From NCBI GenBank assembly GCA_965205535.1, contig CBDBHH010000005.1, positions 2,140,672 to 2,204,671 on the forward strand: a stretch of DNA of 64,000 bases, written 5' to 3'. This document shows positions 11,901 to 12,464 of this stretch, piece after piece. The notes under the pieces are model-generated. The model had not been told where the DNA came from. It saw nothing but the letters and a program-made list of their open reading frames with translations, and ran no database searches. Numbering within the stretch: position 1 is the first letter of the stretch; each line of letters opens with the position of its first letter. The position numbers were made by a program, and so were the translations under genes. The stretch is from Alphaproteobacteria bacterium. GTDB taxonomy: Bacteria > Pseudomonadota > Alphaproteobacteria > UBA6615.

Positions 11901-12093
11901 AGGTGTGAATGAGCTTGGTGCTTACGGACGATGGGCTTTTGATCAGTTCGAGAGTGTGTATGAAATCGAACGCGAGTTTCGCGAGCTGATTGATCGTGCC
12001 TCTAGCAATTCTGCGGCGATGTACCTTGCCTCTCGCGGGGGACAGGAACCGGAGCTGGAAGCGCCCAGGCGACGGAGGCCAGCATCTAGATGA
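8980..12093 (+). CDS. res: Type III-like restriction enzyme Res subunit (SF2 DEAH helicase plus C-terminal PD-(D/E)xK nuclease)
   Basis: 1037 aa. Conserved N-terminus FFEQPILNSPYSEPSRHHDLDEDGQPT. Walker A MATGAGKTTVMA, DEAH box VINDEAHHCY, helicase motif VSMLTEGWDTNTVTHILG, and nuclease-like motif YVPDFIV...IIIEIKG near the C-terminus. Confidence 0.9.
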   Translation: MHESFFEQPILNSPYSEPSRHHDLDEDGQPTDQPPNVGRRPFSRLSPVPKPKKRRSKNTNDGQQDLALYADDGISTVEQEYNQTQVINNIRDHLKLWRAMTNPQDWGVTPATARLLSHWRTHEFQGIRPFFCQIEAVETIIWLTEVAKRQQVHRSFWRHIENANAGANPELIRLAMKMATGAGKTTVMAMLIAWQSVNAVRSPNSKLFTRGFLVVTPGITIKDRLRVLQPSDPNSYYESRELVPADMLQDLGKAKIVITNYHAFQLREKLEANKVTRSVLQGRHEPIQSKETEGEMVRRVADELMGMKNIVVINDEAHHCYREKPDAEDEKLTGDEKKEAEENNKAARLWINGIEAFKRKLGVGAVYDLSATPFFLAGSGWAEGTLFPWTVSDFSLMDAIECGIVKLPRIPVDDNIPGEDMPIFRNLWDHIGKKMPKKGGLTVNPRTALPDQLQTALQSLYGHYEKVNAEWDREGIEIPPVFIVVCNNTTTSKLVYEWISGWQRPNEDDEPVTEHRGHLSLFSNFDQYDEPLAKPNTLLIDSQQIESGELDKNFREMAAAEIETFKRERKQRGEYGDIADAELLREVMNTVGKKDRLGEKIRCVVSVSMLTEGWDTNTVTHILGVRAFGTQLLCEQVVGRGLRRLSYDPVNPSDPPDQWMFASEYADILGIPFNFTAKPVVAPPTAPKKTTHIKALKEREALEIRFPRVIGYRVDLPEERLSAEFTETSSYVIDHEKVGASQTDMSGIVGEGHTLSLKDAQNLRPSTIAMNLAKDVLNRHFVDEDGEPKYHLFGQIKGICRRWIDEGYLKCPGDTEPWMLSFYPEIASQACEKIVTAIVRARGDEQKVKAVIDPYNPEGSSRHVSFTTTKDVRETDSRRCHVNYVVSDSDWEAEFARCAENDDRVVSYIKNQGLGFTVPYRDGDLPREYVPDFIVRVDDGRGPDDPLNIIIEIKGFKNEQVKLKKETMTDKWVPGVNELGAYGRWAFDQFESVYEIEREFRELIDRASSNSAAMYLASRGGQEPELEAPRRRRPASR

Positions 12094-12464
12094 AAGTGCT
12101 GGTTGATACTTCGATATGGGTTGATCACCTGAACAATGATGACCCCAACCTCCGAACGCTTCTCAAGAACGGGAGTGTGGTTACACATGAGATGATCGTC
12201 GGTGAAATAGCCTGCGGAAGCCTGAAACAACGATCTAAGACCTTGGTTTCGATGGATGCGATTTCGGCCGTTCCGATAATGAGCTCCGAGCACGTCCGAC
12301 AATTTGTCGAAGACCATAACTTATTCTCAAAAGGAATTGGCTGGGTCGATCTTCATTTATTGAGTGCGGCTGTTGAGGCTGGCGTTTTGGTTTGGACCAA
12401 AGATGCAAAGCTTGCTGATGCCGCGAAGCTTGTGGGTTGCCACTTCGAACTTGTGGCCAATTAG
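12090..12464 (+). CDS. VapC-like PIN-domain ribonuclease (type II toxin-like), no adjacent antitoxin ORF
   Basis: 124 aa. MKVLVDTSIWVDHL with acidic quartet D6, E39 (VGEIA), D87 (WVDLHLL) and D105 (WTKD). The ATG overlaps the res stop (ATGA at 12090-12093). Confidence 0.85.
   Translation: MKVLVDTSIWVDHLNNDDPNLRTLLKNGSVVTHEMIVGEIACGSLKQRSKTLVSMDAISAVPIMSSEHVRQFVEDHNLFSKGIGWVDLHLLSAAVEAGVLVWTKDAKLADAAKLVGCHFELVAN

Follow-up and report, generated by a model that had tools for sequence, protein, structure and literature searches.

The 64-kb stretch analysed here (contig CBDBHH010000005.1 of an Alphaproteobacteria bacterium; hereafter the window, on which all positions are numbered) carries a Type III-like restriction-modification (R-M) operon with an additional gene between res and mod. 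This gene encodes a PIN-domain protein that, judged from its sequence and context, belongs to the VapC toxins, and the preceding restriction subunit, Res, ends in a C-terminal tail that is homologous to the toxin-binding end of a VapB antitoxin. The genes res, PIN and mod all lie on the + strand, and the features at their junctions are the following:

8980..12093, + strand: res, 1037 aa; BPTD_3080-family (Type III-like) restriction endonuclease/helicase subunit with an extra C-terminal tail
12016..12090, + strand: VapB-derived Res tail, residues 1013-1037, AMYLASRGGQEPELEAPRRRRPASR; outside the family profile, matched by the VapB-tail profile
12016-12078, + strand: core 21-residue motif of the Res tail
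12074..12078, + strand: GGAGG, Shine-Dalgarno-like, for the PIN gene; read from the sequence, within Arg codons of the tail and 11 nt 5' of the ATG
12090..12093, + strand: ATGA, overlap of the PIN start codon and the res stop codon; translational coupling
12090..12464, + strand: vapC, PIN-domain toxin gene, 124 aa; PF01850, family alignment and AlphaFold2 (AF2) model
12476..15415, + strand: mod, Type III-like N6/N4 DNA methyltransferase, 979 aa; Pfam N6_N4_Mtase and PADLOC MTase_III PDLC03632

The PIN gene is thus packed between res and mod on one strand, with gaps of 0 and 11 nt. Its ATG (12090-12092) overlaps the res stop TGA (12091-12093), forming ATGA, and its stop TAG (12462-12464) is followed by the mod ATG at 12476, a start that is backed by orthologous Mod proteins likewise beginning MAKR.... 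The initial annotation, which was made from the letters alone, had described the overlap and the 11-nt spacing in the same way and had found no separate vapB upstream of the PIN gene and no room for one downstream. All three statements hold: the remaining two forward frames over 11881-12093 are full of stops and contain no separate vapB ORF (open reading frame), and a small (~65 aa) free-standing antitoxin is absent at the locus, the tail being part of the 1037-aa Res ORF. Likewise, no other VapB-like ORF and no second antitoxin were found in the 64-kb window. An independent 9,321-bp Logan contig covers 9658-18978 with zero differences, which excludes an assembly artefact at the res/PIN junction. 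In the source genome's own annotation, res (P0045) is called with 938 aa and a start ~99 codons downstream of 8980; the start at 8980 (MHESFFEQPILNSPY...) is backed by the family profile and by orthologs.

Res matches the NCBIfam model of the BPTD_3080 family restriction endonucleases (NF046055) with 1277 bits at a cut-off of 800 over residues 6-1003, and therefore passes this equivalog model with a Type III-like Mod encoded adjacently (1183 bits to PADLOC MTase_III PDLC03632 over the full length). It also matches Pfam ResIII and RE_endonuc, and its DEAH motif and PD...ExK endonuclease motif fall on invariant columns of the ortholog alignment. The family profile stops at residue 1003 of 1037, and the tail lies beyond it, as had been proposed initially. 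The 118 next-best Res orthologs (67-85% identical, 1004-1030 aa) end 8-20 residues past ...EFRELIERA in short, variable and unrelated tails, and none of them carries AMYLASRGGQEPELEAPRRRRPASR, the last ~25 residues of the window Res. The continuation ...AAMYLASRGGQEPELEAPRRRRPASR occurs only in the window Res and in relatives with a PIN gene downstream. PIN-less orthologs carrying the tail, which would have spoken against the proposal, were looked for among the 118 and none was seen; three tail-less orthologs whose genomic context was checked have no PIN gene, and no case of an intact PIN gene beside a tail-less Res was found. The tail is accordingly found only in Res proteins that precede this PIN clade. 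In the AF2 model of full-length Res, which is of low confidence (predicted local distance difference test (pLDDT) 57.9 overall) and of which only the C-terminal part was used, cautiously, a helix at 996-1018 is followed by residues 1019-1037 that are predicted to be disordered.

The PIN protein matches Pfam PF01850 (34.6 bits, cut-off 23.6). It carries the acidic catalytic residues D6, E39, D87 and D105, and their retention, already noticed in the initial annotation, is borne out by a 42-sequence family alignment in which D6 and D105 never vary and conservation of E39 and D87 is at least 90%. The AF2 model of the protein has a pLDDT of 94.9, and the PDB structures nearest to it are VapC toxins (6a7v VapC11, template modelling (TM) score 0.77; 4chg VapC15, TM 0.76), with 3tnd, a VapC from a VapBC complex, also among the best structural matches. 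The NCBIfam VapC equivalog NF047959 was not passed (28.2 bits, cut-off 80). Despite this, the free-standing members of its subfamily are paired with VapB, and the PIN protein is encoded directly after an ORF bearing an antitoxin tail, with stop and start overlapping, as expected of a VapC. From its sequence, the protein is a member of a divergent VapC subfamily.

The contexts of PIN homologs were compared across GTDB genomes (80 loci), JGI metagenomes (4 loci) and ENA or Logan assemblies (several loci). In almost every case a ~65-aa PF09957 VapB ORF lies upstream, and its stop overlaps or abuts the PIN start; an overlap or near-abutment of this kind, as described for the family in the initial annotation, is seen for most of the free-standing pairs. 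The VapBs upstream of ~80 free-standing PIN homologs share the tail consensus ARRLAALGGSEPQLRPIPRRR, and their C-termini read ARRLAxLGG[ST]EPxLxx[IV]PRRR followed by 3-8 residues. The Res C-terminus has the pattern ...L-A-x-R-G-G-Q-E-P-x-L-x-x-P-R-R-R-R and aligns with the VapB tails without gaps and at equal distance from the PIN start, for example ...RGGQEPELEAPRRRRPASR in Res against ...LGGSEPELEAPPRRKPAST in the VapB of locus L016, or, in a second excerpt of this VapB/Res pair, ...RLARLGGSEPELEAPPRRKPAST (VapB) against ...YLASRGGQEPELEAPRRRRPASR (Res). The VapB likeness that had been noticed from the sequence therefore stands, and it is only the family motif quoted with it, ALRGKL.WEGDLDAMR.DR, that does not: it belongs to another VapB subfamily, and the real subfamily tail fits Res better.

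Standard family models are of limited use for so short a segment. A Pfam scan of the Res C-terminus gave no match to PF09957, which is uninformative because this model stops at VapB residue 46 and leaves the tail out. The N-terminal DNA-binding domain of VapB (PF09957 model positions 1-47) is absent from Res, and the Res tail is for this reason not a VapB-family member as Pfam defines it. A full-length VapB hidden Markov model (HMM) has Res as its best match in the window, aligned only over HMM positions 34-63. A protein search with the last 60 Res residues as query yielded zero candidates, and a PDB search with VapB found no solved antitoxin having the GGSEP...PRRR tail. When whole proteins were searched with a 21-column tail HMM in local HMMER, scores were 5-7 bits and thus within the chance range; we therefore used an ungapped full-length profile of the 21 columns, built from 78 VapB tails, together with empirical nulls.

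The fusion is seen in L001, L003, L097, L099 and probably L098, so that besides the window as many as five independent contigs, which come from different samples, carry it. The loci and, where scored, their VapB-tail profile scores (identities refer to the window proteins) are:

Window: Res tail score +14.9 bits
L001: fused; Res 90% identical, PIN 77%; tail score +16.4 bits
L097: fused; PIN 81%; tail score +17.4 bits
L003: fused; Res 83%, PIN 55%; tail score +3.3 bits
L098: probable fusion; PIN 50%, then mod; 36 upstream residues visible, ending ...LAGRGGTEPQLKDIPRRRPEIK; tail score +29.2 bits
L099: fused; an insertion interrupts PIN past ~residue 66, Res and tail being intact
L002: copy of L099 from the same sample, with low coverage and frameshifts

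By comparison, the control maximum was -23.0 over 117,049 positions of the 118 other Res orthologs and -10.4 over 77,590 positions of the remaining window sequence, translated in six frames. Among composition-preserving shuffles of the 30-residue tails, 0, 0 and 2 in 200,000 reached the observed score; for the window Res tail it was 0 of 200,000. These sequence comparisons show the Res tail to be homologous to VapB toxin-binding tails, and the comparative evidence that the resemblance reflects homology is strong.

The tail is also maintained. Its 21 codons show 10 synonymous and 2 non-synonymous changes between the window and L001, which corresponds to a ratio of non-synonymous to synonymous changes per site (pN/pS) of 0.07, as compared to 0.09 for the Res core (last 150 codons) and 0.21 for PIN. 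Between the window and L003 synonymous sites are saturated, yet YL..RGGQEP.L..PRRRR is conserved. Purifying selection thus acts on the tail, in the reading frame of Res. The layout of the junction recurs as well: the ATGA overlap is also present in L003, the res stop and PIN start of L001 have one base in common (TGATG), and both loci have purine-rich sequences equivalent to GGAGG. The sole decayed locus is the L099 lineage, in which the toxin is disrupted and the tail kept; toxin lost first and tail kept is the order of decay that toxin-antitoxin dependence permits. In this lineage foreign DNA interrupts PIN after ~codon 66 with Res and tail intact (L099 4213-4941; L002 553-1250), and the insert in L002 is ~7 kb long and includes a DDE transposase fragment. 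Searches of viral contigs and plasmids returned nothing related to the fused locus.

The PIN clade of the fused loci is monophyletic in a neighbour-joining tree of 91 PINs and has 5 members, all Res-linked. Two substitutions set it apart, P34E (5 of 5 fused PINs, 0 of 86 others) and G80S (5 of 5, 4 of 86 others), and among 43 database homologs E34 is restricted to the Res-linked proteins. The four catalytic acids are kept in the five fused-clade PINs, which have diverged to 48% identity. PIN codon 34 (12189-12191) encodes E34 in all fused-clade PINs and Pro in 72 of the 86 free-standing homologs, and at Res codon 1019 (12034-12036) all fused tails read RGG, free VapBs LGG. Judged from the sequences, the E34 change in PIN and the RGG change in the Res tail could compensate each other as a charge pair at the interface.

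Taken together, these data suggest that Res, by way of its VapB-derived tail, probably serves as the antitoxin that neutralises VapC; the proposal that the tail is the toxin-binding end of a VapB placed on Res, and the PIN protein its cognate VapC, was supported by every check run. Solved structures of VapBC complexes show the VapB C-termini as extended segments over the VapC dimer, with arginines inserted into the acidic active sites (PMC5389673). The flexible Res tail would bind VapC in a similar manner, its arginine cluster blocking the acidic active site, and VapC would be stored inactive on Res at a ratio of ~1:1 set by translational coupling. Truncation of or insertion into res, proteolysis of the tail or a halt in res expression would free VapC, because the antidote is the final segment of a 1037-codon ORF. 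Freed VapC would cause RNA cleavage and growth arrest, and intact res would thereby become addictive. The fusion could also provide a back-up abortive response on restriction shut-down, and the pay-off would lie in stabilising res and the island, in an abortive-infection back-up, or in both. Synthesis of VapC appears possible without intact Res, given the GGAGG 11 nt before the ATG and the lack of significant masking structure (RNA structure over the res/PIN junction and GGAGG: z = 0.66), which suggests that VapC could still be made after truncation or loss of res.

We also considered that Res, tail and VapC form a built-in integrity sensor or guard of restriction, a reading that is possible but doubtful. 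According to it, a phage anti-restriction factor, host shut-off or proteolysis would disable or deplete Res, upon which the tail would release VapC; the released RNase would abort infection and act as a second defence line like that of PrrC-EcoprrI, built independently from a toxin-antitoxin pair.

Several observations weigh against Res acting as the antitoxin. In local HMMER, the full VapB HMM finds Res with a marginal E of ~0.04 among 1,778 targets, and the Res tails are divergent, scoring 3-29 bits as compared to 43-68 bits for the self-scored training VapB tails. There are ~five or six examples of the fusion in all, from a single clade. Antitoxins are labile, whereas Res is a stable enzyme of 1037 aa, and this makes the release trigger hard to see. 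Translational coupling might reduce VapC synthesis upon truncation of res, which would weaken the addiction argument. Finally, the check for a second antitoxin covers 64 kb of a ~3.6-Mb genome.

Some of these points would also fit a tail that is a deletion leftover without antitoxin function, with a PIN protein that is non-toxic here, neutralised by an unlinked antitoxin, or decaying. That Res tails score far under genuine VapB tails, that one lineage already has a disrupted PIN, and that an unlinked antitoxin is conceivable with a search confined to the window all point in this direction. We nevertheless regard a leftover as unlikely: the purifying selection on the tail is as strong as that on the Res core and has persisted to saturated synonymous divergence between the window and L003, the catalytic acids have survived in all five diverged PINs, and intact PIN genes were not found beside tail-less Res. 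The tail might instead be a docking peptide that recruits PIN as an accessory nuclease of the restriction complex, directed for example against phage RNA or DNA, and not a toxin lock. Such a role would suit a PIN gene that is embedded in, and translationally coupled within, a res-mod operon, in a slot that holds other nuclease-type cargo (YhcG, a neighbouring HNH gene), and antitoxin-less PIN genes have been noted in type I R-M operons (PMC5499597). It is quite unlikely, however, because the peptide derives from the very part of VapB that occludes the VapC active site in solved complexes, so that binding to the tail should inhibit the PIN and not leave it active, and the closest relatives of this PIN are ordinary VapBC toxins.

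If translation also started internally and in frame, at the Met of AAMYLAS..., a separate micro-antitoxin of ~24 aa would be made, and Res itself would not be the antitoxin. The in-frame ATG at Res codon 1014 is present in the window, L001 and L097, but L003 has Asp, and L099 and L002 have Ile, in place of the Met. The ATG lacks a preceding Shine-Dalgarno sequence, and no sigma-70-like promoter was found on the + strand over 8200-19100; with the Met not conserved, we rejected this very unlikely peptide. Chance resemblance, or an assembly or frameshift artefact, is extremely improbable. The motif is short and Arg/Gly-rich, and the HMMER match is marginal, yet all of the ~195,000 control positions scored far lower than the Res tails and no more than 2 of 200,000 composition-matched shuffles equalled an observed score, while the fusion recurs in the independent contigs from different samples and the Logan contig is identical across the junction. 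Controls, shuffles and independent contigs thus gave no support to either explanation.

The fusion is most simply explained by the loss of most of a vapB gene. The slot between res and mod has the following contents in related islands:

L095 (Sphingorhabdus lutea): empty; res and mod overlap
L096: a 387-aa unknown gene
L094: RhuM and a 306-aa gene
L093: YhcG nuclease and a complete vapB-vapC pair
L006: a 73-aa antitoxin and PIN

From these varied contents it follows that the slot is a cargo hotspot which vapBC-type cassettes have entered more than once. The L006 antitoxin has a different N-terminal domain and the same GGSEPQAQDIPRRR tail. The cargo is often translationally coupled to res. In L006 (GCA_041752855.1, 4390-6080), mod is split into 142-aa N-terminal and 98-aa C-terminal fragments with an HNH_2 gene between them, and this island therefore has res and no intact mod.

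A vapBC cassette would formerly have resided in this variable slot of the Type III-like island; the DNA-binding N-terminal domain of VapB would have been lost and its last ~21-25 codons, the toxin-binding tail, joined in frame to res at its 3' end. The simplest history would be a single in-frame deletion from near the res stop to mid-vapB, keeping the last ~25 vapB codons. A deletion origin, as suggested in the initial annotation, is plausible from these comparisons. Unfused arrangements do exist in the slot (res-...-vapB-vapC-mod in L093, res-antitoxin-PIN in L006), but the PINs they encode do not group as sisters of the fused clade in the neighbour-joining tree. Direct descent from an L093-like or L006-like locus is not supported for this reason, and by the PIN phylogeny the two loci are precedents, not ancestors.

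The operon belongs to an ~11-kb island (~7.8-18.95 kb) with a GC content of 52%, as compared to 61-63% in the flanks. The island adjoins the 3' end of tRNA-Thr(tgt) (18949-19024, - strand) and is absent from sequencing runs X4-X7, which carry the same species label; neither an att-type direct repeat nor an integrase was found for it. A look through the sequencing runs returned no RNA run. Two further genes follow mod:

15427..16338, + strand: 303-aa gene of the island core with a TIR-effector-like C-terminal region; PADLOC PDLC00733 match
16344..18449, + strand: UvrD/GajB-like helicase, 701 aa, last gene of the conserved res-mod-X-helicase island; Pfam UvrD domains, PADLOC GajB-like

Residues 192-276 of the 303-aa protein match the PADLOC 'TIR effector' model PDLC00733 (E = 1.8e-10); the protein has no Pfam match, and a ~306-aa gene lies at the equivalent position in L095. 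The UvrD/GajB-like helicase is also found after mod in L094, L095 and L096. Residues 23-81 of the helicase weakly match the HigB-like RelE toxin family PF05015 (E = 0.0014), and this N-terminal region could, by that match, be a second toxin-like domain of the island.

Toxin-antitoxin (TA) modules and R-M systems are often co-located in defence islands, and few direct physical links between the two are on record. In the locus described here the link appears to be encoded in the sequence itself, the neutralising peptide of an antitoxin forming the C-terminus of a restriction subunit and being kept by selection. The fusion is rare, with one clade and ~six sequences, and full-text literature searches, which had partial coverage, did not turn up any report of a restriction subunit with a fused antitoxin tail. 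A further outcome is that the res-mod junction emerges as a cargo-gene hotspot in this island family. If Res neutralises VapC, the toxin-binding peptide of an antitoxin is transferable to an unrelated large enzyme and still works there. This would be a simple genetic route to an addictive restriction gene, since any truncation of res removes the antidote, and a compact model of a defence system that monitors its own integrity.

The classic documented link between an RNase and an R-M system is PrrC-EcoprrI, in which the PrrC anticodon nuclease is held latent by the type Ic restriction enzyme EcoprrI; their association and the activation by phage T4 Stp have been shown experimentally (PMC1484252). 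Both systems have an RNase gene inside an R-M operon and a restriction enzyme as its silencer, here inferred from sequence, and the notion that loss or inhibition of restriction unleashes the RNase is a conceptual likeness. The proteins are unrelated: PrrC consists of an ABC-ATPase N-domain and an anticodon-nuclease C-domain, whereas the window protein is a 124-aa PIN domain only. In addition, the host system of PrrC is type I and not Type III-like, and its masking interface is not derived from a toxin-antitoxin pair. Matelska et al (2017) describe PIN-like genes that are transcriptionally coupled to type I R-M subunits, some of them antitoxin-less, and state that no direct TA-RM interaction had been shown until then (PMC5499597). 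As at the locus in the window, these cases have a PIN toxin in an R-M operon without a recognisable separate antitoxin; unlike it, they are type I systems, and no fused antitoxin remnant was reported for them.

The nearest solved PIN structures by profile are Mycobacterium tuberculosis VapBC11 (6a7v, E 1.5e-4) and VapBC15 (4chg, E 8e-4), in both of which VapC was crystallised with VapB; their identity to the window PIN is only 18-19%. Single-chain toxin-antitoxins of the CapRel-SJ46 type resemble the Res tail in that the antitoxin element is covalently part of a larger protein. In CapRel-SJ46, however, the antitoxin is fused to its own toxin, whereas at the present locus it is carried by a third-party enzyme and the toxin remains a protein of its own.

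The closest comparison is with canonical VapBC modules with a PF09957 VapB (L004, L009, L016 and L093), whose toxins belong to the same PIN subfamily (38-54% identity). They have in common with the fused locus the C-terminal motif ...LA.LGG[ST]EP.L..PRRR and the overlap or near-abutment of stop and start; the fused locus differs by the change of LGG to RGG in the tail and by P34E and G80S in the PIN clade. A canonical VapB is a labile protein of ~65 aa, whereas the tail described here ends a 1037-aa restriction enzyme. Unlike the canonical modules, the fused locus is without the ~45-aa N-terminal DNA-binding/dimerisation domain, and VapB-type autoregulation is impossible in its absence. The fused locus is thus most like a VapBC module in which the antitoxin body has been replaced by a restriction enzyme.

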